Of a stretch of 64,000 bases of DNA, positions 2,101 to 48,984 are shown piece after piece (the stretch's first letter is position 1; each line of letters starts with the position of its first letter). A program made the translations under genes and the position numbers. Origin of the DNA: an uncultured Candidatus Binatia bacterium (GTDB lineage: Bacteria > Desulfobacterota > Binatia > Bin18); NCBI GenBank assembly GCA_965247985.1, contig OZ252051.1, forward strand, positions 252,240-316,239, read 5' to 3'. The notes beneath the pieces are model-generated. The model was not told the origin of the DNA and ran no database searches. It was given only the letters and a program-made list of their open reading frames with translations.

Positions 2101-5100
2101 CTAGAACGCAGCCACGCTGAGATCGTTTGATCTGTCTGCCAGCCGTTGCTCAAAAGCGACCAGCTCGTCATCCAGGATGCTGAAGTATTTGGCTTCGGGA
2201 TGATGAAAGACGAGCGCCGAGACCGAGGCTTCCGGCTCCATCATGTAGCCCTCGGTCAGCTCGACGCCGATTGCCTCGCTGACTGGTAGCAACTGAAACA
2301 AGCGTTCCTGGTCTTCAAGGCGCGGACAGGCCGGATAGCCGAAGCTTACCCGGACCCCGCGGTATTGGGCCTTGAAGCGCTCGCGCATGGTCAACTCTGG
2401 CGGGTCGGCAAAACCCCACATCTCACGCAGGCGTTGATGGAGCAGTTCGGCAAACGCCTCCGCGCCTTCAATGGCAAGGGATTGGAGAATATGGGAGTCG
2501 AGGTAGCGGCCGGCTTCGCGGTAGTGTTCCGCCAGTTCGCGTACACCATGGCCACAGGTCACCACGAACAGCGCGATATAATCCTGTGTGCCGGCGCTGG
2601 TCGGAGCCGCGAAGTCGCTCAGACAGCGCCCCTCGCCGTGCTGCTGACGGGGAAAAAGAAACGTCTCGGCAAGGTCTTTTCCGTTTGCCCGATACAGCCG
2701 TAGGCTATCGCCGTCCGCCTGGGCCGGAAAGAATTGATACACCGCCCGCGCGTGGAGCAGTTTTTTTGCAATAACCTCGTCCATCACGGCTTCGACCTGC
2801 TGGTGTAACTCGACGGCTTTCTCGTTGCCCTGCTCTAATAAGGTCTCAAGATTGCCCTTGAGCCCCAGGTGCTTGCCGTACAGCATGGTCGGGTTGAGAT
2901 AGGCAAAGATCGCGTCCAGGTCGTAATCATCAAGCGTATGCAGACGCAGATCAGGCGGGCGGGGGGCTGGCTGTTCGTGCGACAGCACGAGCGGTTGGAC
3001 TATAGGGGCCATGGATTTTCGCGGCTGAGACTTGCGGTCCTGCCGGGCCAGACGGGTCCGTTCTTTTTCAAGCTCCAGAATAAGCGCCGCGTGCTTGTCT
3101 TCATCCACAAGCCGGTTGGCCAGATCAAGACCGCGCATGGCATCGTTGGCGTAACACACCAGGCCGTCGTATTCCGGTGCAATTTTATTCGCGGTAAAAC
3201 GCGGCGTCAGCGCGGCCCCCCCCACCAGAATGGGGCACCCCACCTGGGCGGTTTTGAGGTCCTGGGCCGTCACCACCATCTGTTGGGCCGATTTGACCAG
3301 CAAACCGGACAGACCCACGATATCCGGCTGATGCTCCCGCACGGCGGCGATGAGAGTTTCGGGCGCGACTTTAATACCCAGGTTCACCACGCGGTAGCCG
3401 TTATTGGACAGGATGATTTCCACCAGGTTTTTGCCGATATCATGCACATCGCCCTTGACGGTGGCCAGGAGGACGGTGCCTTTGAGCACACTGTCAGCTT
3501 TCTCCATAAAGGGTTCGAGATGACCAACCGCAGCCTTCATGGCCTCGGCGCTTTGCAGGACCTCGGCCACAATGAGTTCGTTGTTGTTAAACAGTCGTCC
3601 GACTTCATCCATCCCCGCCATGAGCGGGCCGTTGATGATATCCAGGGGCAGCCGCTCTTGGAGGGCGGTGTTGAGATCGGCAATCAGGCCATCTTTTGAG
3701 CCTTCTATAATATACCGAGCCAGCCGTTCATCCAGCGGCAGGTCGGCGCGGTTATCCTCAAGCGGCGTTTCTTTTTTCTGTCGAAAGTGGGCCGCAAAAG
3801 CGGCGACCGGGTCCTCACCGCGCCAATAAATCAGATCGTCAGCGAGTTGTTTCTCTTCTTCGGCAATCGAGGCGTAGCGTTCCAGCTTTTCCGTGTTGAC
3901 AATCGCCAGGTCGAGACCGGCTTTGACACAGTGGTAGAGAAACACGGAGTTCAGCACCTCTCGGCCGGCCGGCGGCAGGCCAAAGGAGACATTGCTGATA
4001 CCCAGGATGGTCTTGCAGGCCGGCAGCGCTTGGGTAATCAGCCGGACGCCTTCAATCGTCTCTTCCCCCGCGCCAATATAGTTATGGTCTCCGGTTCCGA
4101 GGGGAAACACCAGCGGATCAAAAATGAGATCTTCAGCAGACAGGCCGTATTTTTGGGTGAGTAGCGCATAGCTCCGTTTCGCAACTGCGAGTTTCCGCTG
4201 ACGGGTGACGGCCATGCCCTGTTGCGGGTCTTCATCAATACAGCCCACCACCACTGCCGCGCCGTAGCGTTTGATGAGCGGCACGACCTGCGCAAACCGC
4301 TCCTCGCCGTCTTCCAGGTTGATCGAGTTGATAATAGCCTTGCCCTGCGACCGTTCCAGCGCGGCTTCAATGACCTGGGCATCGGTCGAGTCGATCATAA
4401 GCGGCACTTTGATCTTCCGTACCAGAATGTCCAGGAAGGTGGTCATATCGCTGAGTTCTTCGCGGTCCGGGTCTGCGACACACACATCCACGACCTGGGC
4501 TCCACCACGCACCTGCCGACGGCCGATTTCTGCGCCTTCTTCAAACGCACCATCAGTGATGAGCCGCTTGAATTTGCGTGACCCAATCACGTTCGTTCGC
4601 TCACCGACCAGCACCGGCCGTTTGTCTTCGTCGATCACCAGGGGTTCGAGTCCAGACACCACACTCCGTTTGGTCGTCGGCAGCGTCCGAGGCCGCTTGC
4701 CCTCCAACATCTGACTGAGCAACTCGATATGCGCGGGCGTCGTGCCACAGCAGCCGCCCAGCATATTGAGCCAGCCGGCATCGACAAAACGTTCGAGCTT
4801 GGCCGCAATCATCTCGGGCGATTCGTTGTACTGCCCGTCTTCGTCCGGCAAGCCGGCGTTCGGAATACACAACACGGGAAAATGAGAGAGCTCGGCTAAG
4901 GTACGTAAATGATCGGTCATAAAATCGGGGCCGGTGGCGCAGTTCAGCCCGAGCGCGAACAGGTCCTGATGCGCCACGGAGGTATACAACGCCTCCACAC
5001 CCTGTCCGGCCAACATCGTCCCCATCGTTTCAACTGTGATGGAGACGGCGACAGGCACGCGGTGCCCGACCGTTCGAAACGCGTCATCGATTCCCAACAG

Positions 5101-5655
5101 GCCCGATTTCAGATTGAGCGTGTCCTGTGTGGTTTCCATCACCAGCAGGTCCACTCCACCCCGCAACAGACCTTCTGCCTGGCCGGCATAGGCGTGGCGC
5201 AGCTGGCTGAAGGTCACACCGCCAGTGACGGAAATCGTTTTGGTCGTCGGCCCCATGGAGCCGGCCACAAAGCGGGACTTTTGGGGTGAGCTATAGCGTT
5301 GGGCACAGGCCCGAGCAAGCTGTGCCGCGGCCTGGTTTATTTCTACCGCTTTCTCTTGCAGACCATATTCGGCCAGGACGATGCTGGCAGCGCCAAAGGT
5401 ATTCGTCTCAATAATATCCGACCCGGCCTGTAAGAAGCTGTCATGAATCTGCGTAATCGCCTCAGGGCAGGTCAACACCAGGTGTTCATTACAGCCTTCA
5501 TACTCAAGGCCGCCGAAATCTTCTGCGCTCAGATTTTGGGCTTGGATGGACGTCCCCATTGCGCCATCGAAGAGCAGCACCCGTTCGTGTAGGAGGGCAC
5601 GCAGTTCACTGGCAGTAGCCGATAAGGAAGGCAATGTGTCGCTCAAATCTCCCAC
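2101..5655 (-). CDS. metH: cobalamin-dependent methionine synthase
   Basis: 1184-aa ORF with homocysteine-binding, pterin-binding, B12-binding (DVHDIGKN) and AdoMet-activation domains in canonical order. Confidence 0.95.
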   Translation of the reverse strand: MGDLSDTLPSLSATASELRALLHERVLLFDGAMGTSIQAQNLSAEDFGGLEYEGCNEHLVLTCPEAITQIHDSFLQAGSDIIETNTFGAASIVLAEYGLQEKAVEINQAAAQLARACAQRYSSPQKSRFVAGSMGPTTKTISVTGGVTFSQLRHAYAGQAEGLLRGGVDLLVMETTQDTLNLKSGLLGIDDAFRTVGHRVPVAVSITVETMGTMLAGQGVEALYTSVAHQDLFALGLNCATGPDFMTDHLRTLAELSHFPVLCIPNAGLPDEDGQYNESPEMIAAKLERFVDAGWLNMLGGCCGTTPAHIELLSQMLEGKRPRTLPTTKRSVVSGLEPLVIDEDKRPVLVGERTNVIGSRKFKRLITDGAFEEGAEIGRRQVRGGAQVVDVCVADPDREELSDMTTFLDILVRKIKVPLMIDSTDAQVIEAALERSQGKAIINSINLEDGEERFAQVVPLIKRYGAAVVVGCIDEDPQQGMAVTRQRKLAVAKRSYALLTQKYGLSAEDLIFDPLVFPLGTGDHNYIGAGEETIEGVRLITQALPACKTILGISNVSFGLPPAGREVLNSVFLYHCVKAGLDLAIVNTEKLERYASIAEEEKQLADDLIYWRGEDPVAAFAAHFRQKKETPLEDNRADLPLDERLARYIIEGSKDGLIADLNTALQERLPLDIINGPLMAGMDEVGRLFNNNELIVAEVLQSAEAMKAAVGHLEPFMEKADSVLKGTVLLATVKGDVHDIGKNLVEIILSNNGYRVVNLGIKVAPETLIAAVREHQPDIVGLSGLLVKSAQQMVVTAQDLKTAQVGCPILVGGAALTPRFTANKIAPEYDGLVCYANDAMRGLDLANRLVDEDKHAALILELEKERTRLARQDRKSQPRKSMAPIVQPLVLSHEQPAPRPPDLRLHTLDDYDLDAIFAYLNPTMLYGKHLGLKGNLETLLEQGNEKAVELHQQVEAVMDEVIAKKLLHARAVYQFFPAQADGDSLRLYRANGKDLAETFLFPRQQHGEGRCLSDFAAPTSAGTQDYIALFVVTCGHGVRELAEHYREAGRYLDSHILQSLAIEGAEAFAELLHQRLREMWGFADPPELTMRERFKAQYRGVRVSFGYPACPRLEDQERLFQLLPVSEAIGVELTEGYMMEPEASVSALVFHHPEAKYFSILDDELVAFEQRLADRSNDLSVAAF

Positions 5656-5910: not shown

Positions 5911-7542
5911 ATGCAGCCCTTTTTTGAAGAATCGTTAGCCGAACATTTGACGCGTATCGAACATTATATGCGGGGCTGTGAGTTGCTTGATTTTCCTCGC
6001 GAAGCAGGTGACTTGCGGGCTGAACTGGCCGCGTTCATGCGAGACCACGCAACTGCCGTTGTCCAAGAATGGGTCGGACTGATCGCACCGACGTTCCCCA
6101 TTCCAACCGATCACGTCCTTGGCGTCACCCGCGATATGCGGGCGGCCCTGCTGCGTTGGGCCCTACATATCGAGCACCCCCACGATACGCAGACCTACGA
6201 ATATCTGCGCGAACATGCCCGGCAGGGGTTTATCTCTCTTTTCCCAGCCTCCCGTTTCCTGGCCAGCCAGATGAAAATTCGCCTCCTGCTCGTGGAGCGT
6301 TTGCGCCACGCGTATGCGAAAGATCGGAAGAAACTCGTTGCCCTGCTGACCTTGCTGGACCAGGAGTTCTCCGAACGTCTTTTGCATATTACGGACTTCT
6401 TTGTTGAAGCCCGAGAAGAAGCGCTGCGGGATGAAGAGGAACGTCATCGCAAGGCGGTTGATTATGCCCCGGCGCCAATCTTTCAGATCAGCGGCTCTGA
6501 CGGCACGATTCAGCAGGCCAATCGAGAAGCGGAGAAAGCCACCGGTATGTCCCAGACCGAGCTGGCCGGGCGGGCCATTTGGGACCTGCATCCAGCAGAG
6601 GAAAGAGAGCACGTCCGCCGGCTCTATCACGAGACCTTAAAGCGGGGCTATCTGGGCTGGGAAAACCTGCGTCTGGTAACGAAAAAAAGAGGGGAGGTTG
6701 TTCCGGTCTCGGTCTATTTTGGGGCTATCGAGCATCGCGGAGAAAAAACCATCCAGGGTATTTATGTGGACATTTCCGATCGGCACCAGTTGGAGAGCCA
6801 GCTCATCCAGTCAGAAAAAATGGCGGCAATCGGACAGCTGGCCGCGGGTATCGCCCACGAAATTCGCAATCCCCTCGGTATCATTTTGAATGCGTTATAC
6901 GATCTGGACCACATTGCAGATACAACCAACCCGGAGATTCATGAGGATCTGCACATCGCCAAGGAGGAAATTACTCGCGCCCAAGAAATCATCACCAATC
7001 TGCTTGAGTTCTCACGCGAGGGCGGGACCGATATGGAAGAGGTCGCCCTTGACGATCTGCTTGGAAAAACGCTCCAATTCATGCGGAAATATTTGGAGAC
7101 GCATAATATCCAAGTCGCGACCCACTTTGGTGATGTTGGCCGCTGTCTGACCAACCAGAACGCCCTGCGCCAAGTCTTTCTGAATCTCATAACCAATGCG
7201 GTTCAGGCCATGCCTCAGGGTGGCGAGTTGCGCTTACAGACCAGGCGGAATGCTCACAATCACGTCACGATTGAATTCAGCGATACGGGTGTCGGCATTC
7301 CCGCACATCAGCTGAACAGCATCTTCAACCCCTTTTTTACGACAAAGGAGCCCGGCCAAGGGACCGGCCTCGGCCTCTCGATCGTGCATTCAGTGATCAA
7401 ACGCTACCAGGGGGATATTGTCGTGCACAGCGCGGTGAACCAGGGCACGACGTTTCTCATCGAGCTTCCCTGTCCGTGCGCGAATGAATCCCCGGTTCTG
7501 GAAGCAGCCTCGACTGATACAACACGGCTTGCCGTTCCCTGA
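5911..7542 (+). CDS. PAS-domain sensor histidine kinase
   Basis: 543 aa with a PAS region, H-box AHEIRNPLG and HATPase_c G-boxes. Immediately upstream of a response regulator. Confidence 0.9.
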   Translation: MQPFFEESLAEHLTRIEHYMRGCELLDFPREAGDLRAELAAFMRDHATAVVQEWVGLIAPTFPIPTDHVLGVTRDMRAALLRWALHIEHPHDTQTYEYLREHARQGFISLFPASRFLASQMKIRLLLVERLRHAYAKDRKKLVALLTLLDQEFSERLLHITDFFVEAREEALRDEEERHRKAVDYAPAPIFQISGSDGTIQQANREAEKATGMSQTELAGRAIWDLHPAEEREHVRRLYHETLKRGYLGWENLRLVTKKRGEVVPVSVYFGAIEHRGEKTIQGIYVDISDRHQLESQLIQSEKMAAIGQLAAGIAHEIRNPLGIILNALYDLDHIADTTNPEIHEDLHIAKEEITRAQEIITNLLEFSREGGTDMEEVALDDLLGKTLQFMRKYLETHNIQVATHFGDVGRCLTNQNALRQVFLNLITNAVQAMPQGGELRLQTRRNAHNHVTIEFSDTGVGIPAHQLNSIFNPFFTTKEPGQGTGLGLSIVHSVIKRYQGDIVVHSAVNQGTTFLIELPCPCANESPVLEAASTDTTRLAVP

Positions 7543-7554
7543 GACACTACTGTC

Positions 7555-8916
7555 ATGCCTGGACATCTTCTCCTGGTCGAAGACGAAGCGAATATGGCCA
7601 AGATGCAGACCAAGATTCTGCAACGTAAAGGCTATACGGTAGAAGCCGTCTGTCATGGCCAAGCAGCACTCCAGGTGCTTGGCCAGACAAATTTTGACGT
7701 CGTCATCACTGACCTCAAGATGCCGGTCATGGATGGGATGCAACTCCTGGGCGAGATGCGGGCGCGCTCCTATGAGTGTCCGGTGATTGTCCTGACCGGC
7801 TACGGCACAATTGAAAGCGCGGTTGAAGCCATGCAGTCCGGGGCGGCGGATTATCTCACCAAACCCTGCAACCCGGATGAGCTGCTGCTCAAAGTCGAGA
7901 AGCTGGTTGAAACACGTCGTCTCCGCCAAGAGGTGGCGCAACTCCGGCACGAGGTGCGGAGCTATAAGCGCTTTGGTGAACTCATCGGACACAGTGCGGC
8001 CATGCGTCGCCTGTACGCCACTATTGGCTCAGTCAGCAGCAATAAAAGTACGGTGCTCATCACCGGAGAAAGCGGGACCGGCAAGGAACTTGTGGCACGC
8101 ACAATTCACCTCAAAGGACCGTGGGCCGGTCAGCCATTTCTCGCCCTCAACTGTGGCGCCATGTCTGAGACCCTGCTTGACAGCCAACTCTTTGGCCATA
8201 AGCGGGGCGCTTTTACCGGAGCCATTGCGGATCACGACGGCGTGTTCCAAGCGGCCAGCGGCGGCACCCTGTTCTTGGATGAAGTGGCGGAAATTCCGCT
8301 GGCGCTCCAGGGCAAATTTCTACGCGCCATTCAAGAGCGGGAAGTCATGCCGTTAGGGGCGAGCCGCCCGATCAGGGTCGATGTCCGGATCATCGCGGCG
8401 AGCAATACCAACCTCGAACAGGCCCTCGCGGCTGGAACGTTTCGGAAAGATTTATTCTATCGCCTGAATGTTGTCCCCATAGATATCCCGCCGCTCAAGG
8501 AACGGCGGGATGACATCCCCCTACTGGTCGATCACCTCGTTGCGGTGTTCAGCACCGCATACAAGGTCCAACCAAAACGCTTGACGGCCGAGGCCATGGA
8601 CAAGCTTGTTGCGTATCCGTGGCCGGGGAATGTGCGTGAGTTACAAAATGTGATTGAGCGCTTGTTCGCATTACATCACGGGCAAGAGATTACCCGGGCC
8701 GATCTGCCGACGCCTATTAGCGAGTTTACGTACGCCGAACCACATTTTGAGGCCTGGGCGGACATGCCTTCCTTAGCCGCTATGGAACGGGCTCTCATCC
8801 TGGCGGCCCTGCGGCGGGGACACGGCAACAAAAACGAAGCCGCGCGCCTGCTCAAGATTGACCGCCAACGCCTGTATCGGAAGATGGAGAAGTATCAGCT
8901 CGATAGCGGAGACTAG
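7555..8916 (+). CDS. sigma-54-dependent response regulator (NtrC family)
   Basis: 453 aa: REC domain (DVVITDLKMPVMDG), AAA+ sigma-54 activator domain (GESGTGKE, GAFTGA) and a C-terminal HTH. Confidence 0.92.
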   Translation: MPGHLLLVEDEANMAKMQTKILQRKGYTVEAVCHGQAALQVLGQTNFDVVITDLKMPVMDGMQLLGEMRARSYECPVIVLTGYGTIESAVEAMQSGAADYLTKPCNPDELLLKVEKLVETRRLRQEVAQLRHEVRSYKRFGELIGHSAAMRRLYATIGSVSSNKSTVLITGESGTGKELVARTIHLKGPWAGQPFLALNCGAMSETLLDSQLFGHKRGAFTGAIADHDGVFQAASGGTLFLDEVAEIPLALQGKFLRAIQEREVMPLGASRPIRVDVRIIAASNTNLEQALAAGTFRKDLFYRLNVVPIDIPPLKERRDDIPLLVDHLVAVFSTAYKVQPKRLTAEAMDKLVAYPWPGNVRELQNVIERLFALHHGQEITRADLPTPISEFTYAEPHFEAWADMPSLAAMERALILAALRRGHGNKNEAARLLKIDRQRLYRKMEKYQLDSGD

Positions 8917-39765: not shown

Positions 39766-41097
39766 ATGTATCGGGTGTGGGAACGGGTGTTGGGGATTGT
39801 TGAGGGAAAAGTAGGAAAGACGAATAGTGAAACCTGGCTAAAACCGATTCGCCCCCTTGGACTACAAGATGACACGTTCCATCTTGAGGTGCCAAGCGCG
39901 CTCTTTAAGGATTGGTTACTCAGTAATCTCGTCGGCCCTTTAGAAAACGCATTGACTGAGGTTCTTGGTCAGCCAACGCACCTCATATTGCATGTACAGG
40001 AAAAACCACAAGGAGAACTCTTCCTGGAAGAAGAGAAAAAACAAACAGCCGAGGAAAAGGAAAAAGGGGGAGGAAAGAGAAACGGACTTATTCAGAACTA
40101 TACATTTTCCTCCTTTGTTGTGGGTGGCGGTAATCAGTTTGCTCATGCCGCGGCTACGGCAGTCAGTAAACACCCAGGGAAAAGCTACAATCCGTTGTTC
40201 ATTTATGGAGGAGTTGGGTTAGGAAAAACTCATCTCATTAATGCTATTGGTCATGAGACATCGATAAAGAAAGGAAAGGACAATATTGTCTATCTTTCTT
40301 CAGAGTCTTTTACCAATGAATTGATTGTTCATTTACGAAAGAACCGGATGACGGAATTTAAAAATAGATTTCGTCGTGCGGATGTTCTCATTCTTGATGA
40401 TGTGCAGTTCCTGTCCGGTCGTGAGCGGACACAGGAGGAATTTTTTCACACCTTTAATTCTCTGCACGAGTCGAGTAAGCAGATTGTATTAACGTCCGAT
40501 AAATTTCCAAATGAGATTGGCGGGCTAGAAGAGCGGTTACGAAACCGTTTTGAATGTGGATTGATTGCTGACATTCAGCCACCCGACCTCGAGACTCGGG
40601 TAGCAATTCTGCAAAAGAAATCACGCGCAAAACGTATCTCCCTCCCCGACGATGTTGCCCTTTTTATTGCCTCTCATGTTACTTCAAATGTCCGAGAGCT
40701 TGAGGGCGGCCTGACGCGATTAGGAGCGCTGGCAGCCTTAAATCAGGCTGATATTACTGTCAACTTTGCACGCCAGGCCCTCCAAAACTTAGTCACAGCC
40801 AAGGAAAAGGAAGTCTCGATTGAGACCGTACAGAAAACTGTGAGTAAGTATTTTGGTGTCAGCGTTGCTGATATTACCTCAAAGAAACGGACAAAGCTGG
40901 TTTTGTTTCCAAGACAGATTAGTATGTTTCTCTGCCGCAAGCTCGCCGGCGCCTCCTACCCAATGATTGGAATGCGATTTGGAGGAAAAGATCATACTAC
41001 GGCTCTGCATGCCTGTACTACCATTGAAAAGCGGTTCAAAAAGGATGAAGAGCTTCGTGATATTATCAATAGAATAGAAATCATGATCTATGATTAG
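39766..41097 (+). CDS. dnaA: chromosomal replication initiator DnaA
   Basis: 443 aa with AAA+ Walker A GGVGLGKTHL and a C-terminal DnaA-box-binding domain. Confidence 0.97.
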   Translation: MYRVWERVLGIVEGKVGKTNSETWLKPIRPLGLQDDTFHLEVPSALFKDWLLSNLVGPLENALTEVLGQPTHLILHVQEKPQGELFLEEEKKQTAEEKEKGGGKRNGLIQNYTFSSFVVGGGNQFAHAAATAVSKHPGKSYNPLFIYGGVGLGKTHLINAIGHETSIKKGKDNIVYLSSESFTNELIVHLRKNRMTEFKNRFRRADVLILDDVQFLSGRERTQEEFFHTFNSLHESSKQIVLTSDKFPNEIGGLEERLRNRFECGLIADIQPPDLETRVAILQKKSRAKRISLPDDVALFIASHVTSNVRELEGGLTRLGALAALNQADITVNFARQALQNLVTAKEKEVSIETVQKTVSKYFGVSVADITSKKRTKLVLFPRQISMFLCRKLAGASYPMIGMRFGGKDHTTALHACTTIEKRFKKDEELRDIINRIEIMIYD

Positions 41098-45247: not shown

Positions 45248-47764
45248 ATGGAAGACCATTCCGATTCCCACCCCCTTCCCTCCGTCAATATTGAACAAGA
45301 AATGCGTCAGTCCTACATGGACTACGCCATGAGTGTGATTATTGGTCGAGCATTGCCCGATGTCCGTGATGGACTGAAGCCTGTACACCGACGCGTCCTG
45401 TATGCCATGCACGACCTTGGAAATGAGTGGAACCGTTCGTATAAAAAGTCGGCCCGCGTCGTTGGGGATGTCATTGGGAAATACCACCCACACGGAGATT
45501 CGGCCGTCTATGACACCCTTGTCCGCATGGCGCAGGATTTCTCTCTTCGCTATCCGTTGATTGATGGTCAGGGGAATTTCGGTTCGGTCGATGGCGACCC
45601 TCCGGCGGCCATGCGCTATACCGAAGTCCGCATGACCCGAATCACTTCGGAATTGCTAGCCGATATTGACCGAGAAACCGTCAACTTTATACCGAACTAC
45701 GACGATACCAGCCATGAGCCTGCCGTTCTTCCCGGAAAATTCCCGAATTTATTGGTGAACGGCTCATCTGGAATTGCCGTGGGGATGTCAACCAATATTC
45801 CCCCTCACAATCTTGGCGAAGTGATTGACGCTCTCCTTGCGCTGATTGAGAACACGACGCTCGAAAATCGTGATCTCATGCAATACATCCCTGGTCCGGA
45901 TTTTCCCACTGGAGCGTTCATCCATGGACGATCAGGAGTACGGGACGCCTATGAAACCGGGCGAGGCATCGTTCAGATGCGGGCCCGGACATCTATCGAG
46001 GAAGACGAGAAGACCGGAAAAAGCCGGATTGTCGCCCACGAGATTCCTTATCAGGTGAATAAAGCCCGCCTGATTGAGCGTATCGCTGACTTGGTGAATG
46101 AGAAACGTATTACGGGAATCTCTGACCTGCGTGACGAGTCCGACAGAGAAGGGATGCGCATTGTTATCGAGCTGAAAAGAGATGTGGTCCCGAATATCAT
46201 TCTCAATCAACTGTATAAAATGACGCCCCTCCAGGATTCATTTGGAGTTATTCTTCTCGCCATTGTCGATGGCCGTCCTCTTCTCCTGACTCTTAGAGAC
46301 GCACTGCTTCACTTTCTTGAACACCGTCGAGAAGTGGTCAGACGCCGGATTGCCTTCGATCTGAAGAAGGCCGAGGAACGGCTCCACCTTCTTGAAGGGC
46401 TCAAAATCGCGCTGGACAGCCTCGATCCAGTGCTTCAGACCATCCGCCAAGGGCAGAACCCGGCCAGCGTACGACAGGCCCTTATGAGCCAATTTTCGCT
46501 GAGTGAGACGCAAGCTCAGGCCATTCTCGACATGCGCTTACAGCGCCTCACGCAGCTCGAACAAGGGAAGATCATTTCAGAGCATAGCGAAACGGTGAAA
46601 TTAATTGCTTCGTTACAAGGTATTCTGGCTAGCCCGGAAAAGATCGACGGAGTGATAAAAGAAGAACTGAAAGACCTTCATACCCGATTTTCTGATGGAC
46701 GGCGAACAGAAATCCTACCTGACAGCGCAGATCTCTCGGACGAAGATTTGATTGCTGAAGAAGATGTCGTTGTGACCATATCACACGCCGGCTACATCAA
46801 GAGAAACCCAGTGACTGAATACCGCTCGCAGCGTCGGGGAGGAAAAGGAGTTGTTGGAGCAACAACCCGAGAAGAAGATTTTGTTGAGCACATGTTCATC
46901 TCCTCTACGCACGCCTTTCTGTTATTTTTTTCCTCAATTGGTAAAGTGTATTGGGTAAAAGTCCATGAAATCCCTCAAGGCAGCCGAATTGCAAAGGGAA
47001 AAGCAATAGTCAACCTGTTGCCCCTGCAAGAAGGAGAGAAAATTTCGGCCTTTCTCCCTATCCGAGAGTTCCAAGACAACGGCTTCATTGTCTTTGCCAC
47101 CCGCAAAGGACAAGTCAAGAAAACGGCACTGATGTCGTATGCAAATCCGCGTCGTGGCGGAATCATTGCTCTCACTCTTGGGACCGACGATGAGGTGATC
47201 GGTGTCCAACTAACGGACGGTAAACAAGAGATCCTCCTTTCGACAAAAAACGGCAAAGCGATTCGATTTGCAGAAAAGGAAGTACGAGCAACTGGACGCG
47301 GCACCTCCGGCGTTCGAGGTATTAACCTGGAAGATGAGGATGCCGTGGTTTCCCTTGAAATCCTCAATCAGGAGGCCACCCTCCTCACTGTGTCGTCCCA
47401 GGGATATGGTAAGCGGAGCAGCATAGATGAATACCGGGTGCAGTCGCGCGGGGGGAAAGGGGTCAGTACGATGCGCACCACGGACAAGACCGGAGAGGTC
47501 TGTGGTGTTCGGCAGGTGAAGGAAGACGATGACTTGATGCTCGTGACGGACAGTGGCAAGATCATACGGCTTCGGATCGCTGAGTTACGGGTGATTGGCA
47601 GAAATACCCAAGGGGTGAAACTCTTTAACGTCGGTGCGGATGGATACGTCTCCAGTCTCGCACTGGTAGCAGAAGAGGAGGTAGAAGAGGAAGACGAGGC
47701 AAGGAAAGTCGAAAATACAGAAACGGTTCTCAATTCACACAGTATGGAGGAGCAACAGCTATGA
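45248..47764 (+). CDS. gyrA: DNA gyrase subunit A
   Basis: 838 aa with active-site Tyr region AAMRYTE and C-terminal beta-pinwheel repeats. Confidence 0.97.
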
Positions 47765-48231
47765 GTATTCAGGTCGGCCAAACGGCCCCGGATTTTACCC
47801 TCAAGACAAACAAGATGCAGGACTTTGCACTCGGCGAGGCAAAGGGGAAGAAGAATACCGTCATCCTTTTTGTTCCTTTTGCCTTTACCAGTGGTTGAAC
47901 GAAGGAATTGTGCTCGGTTCGAGACAATATCAACACCTTGCAGAATGACGATACTCAGGTTGTGGCCATTAGCGTGGATAGCCCGTTCTCGCTCGACGCG
48001 TGGGCGGCGAAGGAAGGCTATGATTTTCCACTGCTGAGTGACTTTAGTAAAGAAGTTTCTCAAGCGTACGGGTCGTTCTATGAAGACCTGATCGGTTTCA
48101 AAGGCGTCTCCAAACGTTCGGCCTTTGTCGTGGATAAGAGCGGGACGGTTCAGTACGCCTGGATTACAGAAGATGCCAGTCAACTTCCTGAACTTGATCC
48201 CATACGGGACTGTCTACAGCAGTGCGGCTAA
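47761..48231 (+). CDS. AhpE/BCP-type peroxiredoxin with in-frame TGA (candidate selenocysteine) at the peroxidatic-Cys position
   Basis: ATG overlaps the gyrA stop (ATGA). The translation reads ...[11 protein letters not shown][TGA 47896-47898][10 protein letters not shown]..., aligning with AhpE FFPLAFTGICQGELDQLRD. The track gives only a 107-aa fragment from TTG 47908. Confidence 0.65.
47906..47928 (+). promoter_or_regulatory. candidate bacterial SECIS hairpin
   Basis: aauugu(g)cucg GUU cgagacaau, beginning 8 nt after the UGA. 9-bp stem with one bulged G and a G/U-containing apical loop. Confidence 0.45.
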
Positions 48232-48251
48232 GGGTAGAGCGTTCCGGGAAC

Positions 48252-48286
48252 GGTAAGGGTGGGGCTCACTCCGCCCTTACTTTTTT
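48252..48286 (+). terminator. rho-independent terminator after the peroxiredoxin gene
   Basis: Stem gtaagggtgg / ccgcccttac with loop ggctcact, then TTTTTT. Confidence 0.6.
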
Positions 48287-48519
48287 CCCTCTTTTCCCTG
48301 TGCCACGAGGAGGAGTATCGTGAGGGCCCATATACCAAAAAGCAGCCCGCCAATGACCCAGGGGTAGGGTGGACGCGCGCTCTTTCTGGCAATGAGACCG
48401 CAGGCAATTCCGTCAAGAAAGTGAACAAAGAGCGCAGTCCCAACAAGCGTCGAGAAGTCCATTGTCCCGGCGAGGAAACGTAAGCCGGTGAAATACCCGA
48501 GAAGGATTCCGAAATCCAT
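48277..48519 (-). CDS. small hypothetical membrane protein
   Basis: 80 aa with two hydrophobic segments. No known domain. Confidence 0.35.
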   Translation of the reverse strand: MDFGILLGYFTGLRFLAGTMDFSTLVGTALFVHFLDGIACGLIARKSARPPYPWVIGGLLFGIWALTILLLVAQGKEGKK

Positions 48520-48530
48520 ACTATCTCTCC

Positions 48531-48583
48531 CAGAAGTATCGAGAATATCAAATCGAATCGGAATGTTATTCTCGATACTTCTG
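48531..48583. repeat. palindromic repeat family 2, copy 2
   Basis: 17-bp perfect arms cagaagtatcgagaata / tattctcgatacttctg around loop tcaaatcgaatcggaatgt. Confidence 0.85.
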
Positions 48584-48639: not shown

Positions 48640-48984
48640 ATGGACGAAGAGAAAACTGTTTTCGAGAAGCTGTACGAGGCAAATAGAGAGAACTTTACCA
48701 ACCTTGTAAGGGACCTCTTTGCACAGGTTTCTACGCACGAGGTTATGGAGGAAACGTTGCTGAACGCGACACAAGCGAAAGAAGAATTCGCCCAAAATAT
48801 GGAAGCTTTCCTCTCCCTGCTAAGTATACCCTCCAAAACAGACTACGAGCATTTGGTTGAAAAGATTGAAGAAGTCCAAGGCAATCTTCTCAATATCAAT
48901 ATGAAACTTGATCGTTTACTCGCTAAGAAAGACAAGACGCGCCGGCGCTCTACCGATAAAAGAAAGACCAAAAAAACCGAATAA
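48640..48984 (+). CDS. hypothetical coiled-coil protein, possibly phasin-like
   Basis: 114 aa, alpha-helical, with a Lys/Arg-rich C-terminus. No confident domain. Confidence 0.4.
   Translation: MDEEKTVFEKLYEANRENFTNLVRDLFAQVSTHEVMEETLLNATQAKEEFAQNMEAFLSLLSIPSKTDYEHLVEKIEEVQGNLLNINMKLDRLLAKKDKTRRRSTDKRKTKKTE

Follow-up and report, generated by a model that had tools for sequence, protein, structure and literature searches.

The window analyzed here is a stretch of 64,000 nucleotides from an uncultured Candidatus Binatia bacterium (contig OZ252051.1, positions 252,240 to 316,239). It covers a replication-origin region, in which dnaA (39766-41097), dnaN, gyrB, and gyrA are followed by a peroxiredoxin (Prx) gene, referred to here as prx. 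Codon 46 of prx is an in-frame TGA (47896-47898), and the mechanical list of open reading frames (ORFs) holds the gene as two pieces, a 45-aa ORF (47761-47898) and a 107-aa ORF that begins at TTG 47908. Judged from the sequence, the region 47761-48231 very probably encodes a 156-residue BCP/AhpE-like Prx in which the peroxidatic Cys is replaced by selenocysteine (Sec46), specified by this UGA. We favor this reading because the UGA aligns with the peroxidatic Cys of homologues, the UGA is conserved, selection acts on both sides of it, and a constrained hairpin resembling a bacterial selenocysteine insertion sequence (bSECIS) follows it. The features of the locus are listed in Table 1.

Table 1. 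Features of the prx locus. Positions are those of the 64,000-nt window.
Feature	Position	Strand	Basis or remark
Predicted full selenoperoxiredoxin coding sequence (prx)	47761-48231	+	156 residues with Sec46; stop TAA 48229-48231; translation
Active-site motif P39-F-A-F-T43-S-G-U46 (PxxxTxxU)	47875-47898	+	P39 and T43 invariant in 67/67 distinct genes; aligned to PxxxTxxC of solved Prx
In-frame UGA at the peroxidatic position	47896-47898	+	TGA in 70/79 orthologous loci, TGC/TGT in 9; Cys in full-length homologues
bSECIS-like stem-loop	47907-47928	+	folds; pair counts; synonymous-entropy minimum; fit to published bSECIS model
Cys51 codon TGC, candidate resolving Cys (UxxxxC)	47911-47913	+	G and C of the codon are also the hairpin bulge and the first upper-stem base
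Arg54 CGA and Asp55 GAC, 3' arm of the hairpin	47920-47925	+	synonymous sites frozen: CGA 58/58 and GAC 58/58 in Sec-type genes
Arg119, conserved Prx active-site Arg	48115-48117	+	invariant in 67/67; aligned with the AhpE Arg ('ANRGTF')
C-terminal C151-L-Q-Q-C155	48211-48225	+	conserved Cys, possible alternative resolving residues
gyrA	45248-47764	+	838 aa; ORF list; Pfam DNA_topoisoIV (2.6e-165) and DNA_gyraseA_C
Shine-Dalgarno-like GGAGGAG	47746-47752	+	within the 3' end of gyrA, 8 nt 5' of the prx ATG; read from sequence
ATGA start/stop overlap of gyrA and prx	47761-47764	+	window and every related locus spanning the junction
Intrinsic-terminator-like hairpin and T-run	48252-48287	+	13 pairs, 7 of them G-C; consensus scan and sequence

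With Cys placed at the TGA, residues 5-132 of the product matched Pfam AhpC-TSA (PF00578) at 3e-35 and 121 bits (cut-off, 26), covering profile positions 1-123 of 124. The product also matched 140 Prx sequences of the PDB. The best solved relatives were Aeropyrum pernix BCP (2cx3, 1.1e-31) and Mycobacterium tuberculosis AhpE (1.6e-28), with alignments spanning residues 3-148; the fold was taken from these full-length matches (1e-28 to 1e-31). In both alignments the peroxidatic Cys of PxxxTxxC stands opposite the TGA. The product reached 77.6 bits against the NCBIfam equivalog for the thioredoxin-dependent thiol peroxidase Bcp (NF006960), below the cut-off of 140, and the curated Sec-Prx models were not reached either (PrxU NF040737, 65.1 bits vs 270; Prx-SUH NF045827, 67 bits vs 298). 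By these sequence matches, the prx product is a BCP/AhpE-like short Prx that is neither an E. coli Bcp equivalog nor a member of either curated Sec-Prx family. An initial annotation, made from the letters of the window, had assigned the gene to the AhpE/BCP type and had placed the TGA exactly on the catalytic Cys. The Pfam and structure alignments bear out the first claim, and the alignment with the peroxidatic Cys of close and distant homologues bears out the second.

The active site of the window protein reads U46-T-K-E-L-C51, and that of A. pernix BCP reads CTKELC. Of the 63 Sec-type genes, 58 have Cys51 and 5 have Gly in its place; all 9 Cys-type genes have Cys51. The initial annotation had likened the Cys five residues after the UGA to the CxxxxC of BCP enzymes, which holds for the window and for most orthologues but not universally. 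The exceptions (L040-L043 and L045) carry U-T-N-E-F-G or U-T-K-E-L-G and would be '1-Sec' enzymes. Two C-terminal Cys residues are also widely kept: C151 occurs in 58/63 Sec-type and 9/9 Cys-type genes, including the five-gene clade that lacks Cys51, and C155 occurs in 61/63 and 6/9, respectively.

The conservation of the TGA was evaluated in databases and in related genomes. A search of 5.8 billion proteins returned full-length (156-aa) homologues with at most 83% identity; the closer relatives (78-95% identical) were all C-terminal fragments of 97, 104, or 107 aa. The contigs that carry these fragments show dnaA-dnaN-gyrB-gyrA in the order of the window, and the gene is again divided into a 45-aa ORF and a fragment. 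Thus, the prediction that a standard ORF caller would report only a C-terminal fragment applies to the window and to the public databases alike. Exact look-up found no database record of the window's own 107-aa fragment. Of the 86 database homologues with a length of 150 aa or more, 83 matched the active-site motif and have Cys at the site, except for 5 with Trp; the remaining 3, outside the motif match, also show Cys.

A scan of one genome per GTDB species yielded 35 orthologous loci; nearly all bear the label Candidatus Binatia, and many lie in complete chromosomes (including OX638322.1, OY761159.2, OY763426.1, and OZ243979.1). A scan of metagenomes yielded a further 29 loci containing the region. 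The window and the related genomes share 80-90% DNA identity over 20 kb; the window therefore represents a distinct species of the Binatia group. Some records of metagenome-assembled genomes with a Binatia-type prx (L026, L027, L031-L033, and L039; 77-90% identity to the window protein) bear other names. Several are titled 'uncultured Enterobacteriaceae bacterium' and others Methylomirabilota, Thermodesulfobacteriota, or Proteobacteria; these titles are probably taxonomic mislabels.

Across the 79 orthologous loci, the 70 with TGA at codon 46 represent 63 distinct genes and extend down to 71% protein identity. The initial annotation had proposed an orthologue check at this codon and had named, as one case that would speak against a selenoprotein, a lone nonsense mutation among Cys orthologues with no conserved hairpin downstream. 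The orthologues do not show this pattern. Of the 67 distinct genes used for the selection analysis, 62 have TGA and 5 have Cys at position 46. None of the 62 Sec-type genes has a further in-frame stop or a length change up to the TGA. By pooled Nei-Gojobori estimation, the ratio of nonsynonymous to synonymous differences per site (pN/pS) was 0.159 in codons 1-45, and codons 59-155 gave 0.142. Translation thus extends over the part 5' of the TGA, which is as constrained as the rest of the gene.

The stem-loop downstream of the TGA consists of a 5-bp lower stem (47907-47911/47924-47928), a bulged G (47912), a 4-bp upper stem (47913-47916/47920-47923), and the loop GUU (47917-47919). Counting the U of UGA as 1, the lower-stem pairs are A12-U33, U13-A32, U14-A31, G15-C30, and U16-A29, followed by the bulged G17; the upper-stem pairs are C18-G28, U19-A27, C20-G26, and G21-C25, closed by the loop G22-U23-U24. 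The folding energy was -6.9 kcal/mol for the hairpin alone (z = -2.1) and -7.5 kcal/mol for the 40 nt from the UGA. The bSECIS model of a 2026 review (PMC13188914) specifies a loop of 3-9 nt, an upper stem of at least 4 bp, a G among the first two loop nucleotides (usually as G[G|U]), a UGA-loop spacing of 16-37 nt, and a minimum free energy (MFE) of -7.5 kcal/mol or lower. The window element agrees with this model in its loop (GUU), its 4-bp upper stem (9 bp with one bulge), and its spacing of 18 nt; the energy is borderline, reaching the threshold only just. A bSECIS fit had been proposed in the initial annotation for a hairpin starting at 47906; the fit stands and the start is corrected to 47907.

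Comparison of orthologues pointed to constraint at the RNA level. The stem positions were paired in 83.5% of cells among 35 distinct Sec-type sequences, compared with 34-55% when partners were slid. Pair 12-33 varies in a compensatory manner (AU in 17, GC in 9, GU in 5), and in the L040 clade pair 16-29 is GC instead of UA, accompanied by amino-acid replacements that leave the stem intact. In L040-L043, a perfect 6-bp stem (UUGGCU/AGCCAA) is restored at this site by the changes Cys to Gly, Arg to Gln, and Asp to Ala. An alternative register (12-18/24-30), which RNAfold preferred in some orthologues, showed no covariation, did no better than the slid controls, and was rejected.

The synonymous sites of the hairpin are unusually quiet. 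In windows of 10 codons, the gene-wide minimum of synonymous entropy lies at codons 46-55 (0.65, vs approximately 1.0-1.37 over most of the gene), and pS is 0.46 there and 0.70-0.72 elsewhere in prx. The Cys51 codon is TGC in 57/57 Sec-type genes; the loop wobble positions of Ser52 and Val53 vary freely. The stem wobble codon set TGC/CGA/GAC is kept by 58/58 Sec-type genes, whereas 7/9 Cys-type genes depart from it (Fisher p = 4e-8). The two Cys forms with unchanged stem codons are Gly-Cys forms nested among Sec forms. The stem codons are not the preferred ones in the housekeeping genes of the window, where CGA accounts for 18% of Arg codons, TGC for 35% of Cys codons, and GAC for 45% of Asp codons.

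Several results weigh against the selenoprotein interpretation. In contexts of 40-71 nt the hairpin was no more stable than shuffled sequences, and the 71-nt fold had a z of +0.8. Stability alone therefore cannot establish a SECIS, hence the comparative tests. In 12 of the 35 distinct Sec-type sequences, the fold is weaker than approximately -7.4 kcal/mol, with -1.9 kcal/mol as the extreme. The mean MFE of Sec-type sequences (-7.0 kcal/mol) is not clearly separated from that of the Cys-type sequences (-4.8 kcal/mol; n = 5, closely related), and this comparison was replaced by the wobble-codon test. The RNAalifold consensus retains only an invariant 3-bp core and, taken alone, lends weak support. 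The stem is partly fixed by the conserved residues C-S-V-R-D, by which structure and coding constraint are partly confounded, and neither the Fisher test nor the shuffle controls take phylogeny into account. On balance, 47907-47928 as a SECIS is well supported but not proven.

The components of Sec insertion were also sought, in DNA comprising the 64-kb window and orthologue flanks of up to 10 kb per side. ARAGORN found no tRNA-Sec in the window or in 44 fetched flanks, and tblastn with E. coli SelA, SelB, and SelD gave no match in the window and the fetched loci (approximately 1 Mb). Both negatives are uninformative, as almost the whole of this DNA comes from the origin region. The literature searched links neither Binatia nor Binatota to selenocysteine or selenoproteins. 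Members of Candidatus Binatia have been described as aerobic methane oxidizers of oxic habitats (PMC9999580).

Other readings of the TGA were weighed against the same data. The one that survives best, although it is still quite improbable, is that UGA46 is read through without Sec, by near-cognate decoding as Trp or Cys or by a lineage-specific reassignment of UGA. It draws on the negative scans for Sec machinery and on the five 'full-length' database entries with Trp at the active site (FTGGWTKE...; e.g., P0004 and P0063). These entries are TGA genes translated with a UGA=Trp table and form a second type of mis-annotation, besides the truncated calls; a peroxidatic Trp would be inactive. The adjoining gyrA terminates at TGA in every locus examined; in these genomes UGA thus acts as a normal stop and has not been reassigned. 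Low-level misreading as Cys would leave the repeated alternation of TGA with TGC/TGT unexplained. Any decoding without Sec would likewise leave unexplained a SECIS-like element that lies at the canonical distance and whose constraint is lost in Cys forms.

A split or truncated gene fares worse and is very improbable. Here the UGA would terminate translation and yield a 45-residue N-terminal peptide, a 107-residue fragment from TTG 47908, or both, possibly associating non-covalently and containing no Sec. ORF callers annotate the gene in just this manner, and the negative scans for Sec machinery are compatible with it. However, neither fragment contains the catalytic residue, and the active site framed by the invariant PxxxT of the N-terminal part and Arg119 of the C-terminal part would be vacant. 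Nor is the alternative start conserved among relatives, for which three different downstream starts are called (97, 104, or 107 aa). The interchange of Gly-TGA and Gly-TGC at exactly codon 46 would be unexplained, as would the synonymous sites of a hairpin 11-33 nt downstream that are frozen only in the TGA forms.

Inactivation of a Cys-type Prx gene by nonsense mutation or sequencing error is practically negligible: a single transition-type change (TGC/TGT to TGA) would suffice and Cys-type orthologues do exist, but the same TGA recurs in the 70 loci, whose assemblies and samples are independent, at 71-100% aa identity, with no frameshifts and with the low pN/pS upstream of the TGA, and divergence of 10-30% among the orthologues excludes copies of one contaminating sequence. 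Taken together, the sequence comparisons rule out that the gene is a pseudogene, that the TGA is a sequencing error, or that the genetic code is changed. The gene is real and conserved, and it is almost certainly a selenoprotein gene that annotation pipelines have missed.

The surroundings of prx indicate how it may be expressed. The TGA stop of gyrA (47762-47764) overlaps the prx start codon, as the initial annotation had noted in describing the gene as coupled to gyrA, and the ATGA overlap recurs at the related junctions. GAGGAGGA stands at the position equivalent to that of the ribosome-binding site (RBS) in the related loci inspected. The G+C-rich hairpin 3' of prx, with its T-run, would mark the end of the gyrA-prx transcript. 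From this layout of ATGA overlap, GGAGGAG RBS, and terminator-like hairpin, we infer that the gyrA transcript ends with prx as a translationally coupled cistron. More distant Cys-type homologues (approximately 58% identity) do not stand beside gyrA; the coupling is therefore specific to the Binatia orthologue group.

The following sequence of events is proposed. In the Candidatus Binatia bacterium, prx would be expressed as the last cistron of an origin-proximal dnaA-dnaN-gyrB-gyrA operon. Its translation would be coupled to that of gyrA through the ATGA overlap and the GGAGGAG RBS, and the transcript would end at the intrinsic terminator. The stem-loop at 47907-47928 would recruit SelB carrying Sec-tRNA(Sec), and UGA46 would then be read as Sec and not as a stop. 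Sec46, activated by Thr43 and Arg119, would reduce peroxide and be converted to a selenenic acid, in line with established Prx chemistry. In most members, the selenenic acid may be resolved by Cys51 (UxxxxC, cf. the CxxxxC of atypical 2-Cys BCP) or else by Cys151. A thioredoxin- or glutaredoxin-type reductant would recycle the enzyme.

In a neighbour-joining tree, a few Gly-Cys forms of the gene are interleaved with Sec forms. Residue 45 (47893-47895) is Gly in all Sec-type genes and mostly Val in Cys-type homologues (GV-C in 35 and SV-C in 31 of the database hits). These patterns suggest that the Gly preceding the active site (Gly-1) goes with Sec usage and that switching between Sec and Cys has occurred repeatedly. 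Sec and Cys forms of Prx selenoproteins are interleaved in the same manner in an earlier survey (PMC1794560).

One genome (L085; GCA_031398805.1, JANNNY010000660.1) has two tandem prx copies after gyrA, at 4001-4471 and 4732-5202. The upstream copy encodes a Prx of the Val-Cys type and is coupled to gyrA. The other, approximately 260 bp further downstream, is of the Gly-Sec type and still has the remnant of a duplicated gyrA 3' end, including RBS and ATGA. The two products are identical at 141 of 156 residues. They may form a Sec/Cys backup pair; the arrangement may also be an assembly chimera of two strains.

A wider proposal is put forward tentatively, and we consider it doubtful in this full form: a class-wide Binatia selenoperoxiredoxin, residing in the dnaA-dnaN-gyrB-gyrA operon and toggling repeatedly between Gly-Sec and Gly/Val-Cys forms, with at least one genome having both in tandem, might act as a selenium-availability switch for a peroxide defence co-expressed with DNA gyrase. 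Gly-1 might then be a structural or recoding prerequisite for Sec.

Further features of the region were recorded. Downstream of prx lie two small ORFs without a Pfam match (48228-48551, minus strand, 107 aa; 48640-48984, plus strand, 114 aa), followed by radC, a MaoC dehydratase gene, ssb, and ggt. In related Binatia loci, gene calling places ORFs of about the same length and direction where the two small ORFs lie. In one relative (L009), an IS66-family transposase gene (PF03050; 2047-3519) lies between dnaA and dnaN. An antisense ORF with a TTG start (47368-48183, minus strand, 271 aa) covers the 3' end of gyrA and most of prx. In coding DNA rich in G+C, such an ORF is most likely spurious, and it cannot explain the very local synonymous constraint at codons 46-55. 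An Rfam scan of the whole window at gathering scores found one tRNA-Arg only, and no known RNA family at the prx site; the latter has no bearing on the presence of a bSECIS.

The window was also searched for other pairs of ORFs joined by a single TGA. Of 94 such pairs, 8 were inspected and none was selenoprotein-like; they were rejected as adjacent genes or as ORFs with low-complexity upstream segments. One of the pairs on the plus strand comprises a sensor histidine kinase-like ORF (5911-7542) and a sigma-54-type response-regulator-like ORF (7555-8916), in the same frame with a TGA and 12 nt between them. By eye, the translation points to two ordinary neighbouring genes rather than to a candidate for read-through.

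The protein type is already known, and current understanding is not overturned, since Sec-peroxiredoxins and repeated exchange of Cys and Sec have been documented since 2001-2006. What is new is the link to Binatia, absent from the literature searched, as well as the conservation throughout the class, the coupling to gyrA, the repeated Sec/Cys switching, and the finding that the databases hold fragments of the gene. In every public call found, Sec-type orthologues are mis-annotated, either as a 45-aa stub with a 97-107-aa fragment or by mistranslation with Trp. No NCBIfam model reaches its cut-off on prx, and a model built for this family would put the annotation right in dozens of Binatia genomes. 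The gene implies the use of selenocysteine in an uncultured, environmentally widespread class. The Sec forms, the Cys forms, and the one tandem pair make up a natural series in a nearly identical enzyme, from which the benefit of Sec to a Prx and the residues accompanying it, such as Gly-1, could be learned. The compact SECIS within a conserved peptide is a possible guide for the engineering of minimal SECIS elements.

Among known systems, PrxU of Eubacterium acidaminophilum (Sohling et al. 2001) is the prototype of the Sec-Prx. Unlike the PrxU type (233 aa), the prx product is a short (156-aa), BCP/AhpE-like protein with UxxxxC. This motif also distinguishes it from the Tpx-like Sec enzymes, which have CxxU.

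The likeness to A. pernix BCP (2cx3/2cx4) lies in a nearly identical active-site stretch, AF(S/T)xxC-TKELC-xxRD, with the same CxxxxC spacing. Unlike A. pernix BCP/PrxQ, the prx product would have Sec in place of the peroxidatic Cys, and the +5 Cys is missing in 5 of 63 Sec-type orthologues. M. tuberculosis AhpE (Rv2238c; 1xxu, 1xvw, and 4x0x) has the same size, PLAFTxxC, the ISVDxP...FPLLSDF block, and the conserved Arg. However, AhpE uses Cys and is a 1-Cys enzyme (CQGELD, no +5 Cys), an arrangement that, among the prx orthologues, only the L040-L043/L045 subgroup resembles.

The SECIS of E. coli fdhF, the reference for bacteria, was folded in the same way and agrees with the window element in geometry. 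It is likewise a hairpin directly after the UGA within the ORF, with a loop that starts at nt 22 and contains G-U. The fdhF loop comprises nt 22-25 (GGUC), with a single-base bulge at nt 18 below a 3-bp upper stem; that of the window comprises nt 22-24 (GUU), with the bulge at nt 17 and a 4-bp upper stem. Unlike that of fdhF, the window hairpin is much weaker (-7.5 vs -14.9 kcal/mol over 45 nt), its bulged base is G and not U, and it has no extended lower helix reaching back to the UGA.

Sec-Prx with a T/SxxU active site are an established bacterial family. A 2006 survey reported 12 genes and 5 independent Cys-to-Sec conversions (PMC1794560), and a current review lists the Prx selenoprotein family (PMC13188914), in agreement with the initial annotation, which had called selenoperoxiredoxins an established class. 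Like these enzymes (PF00578), the prx product has the AhpC-TSA fold and PxxxTxxU, with Sec for the peroxidatic Cys and a bSECIS-like element directly downstream within the ORF. Cys orthologues exist and conversions between Cys and Sec are repeated, as in the known family (PMC13188914; PMC1794560). Unlike the known Sec-Prx, prx belongs to Candidatus Binatia and is part of a gyrA operon.

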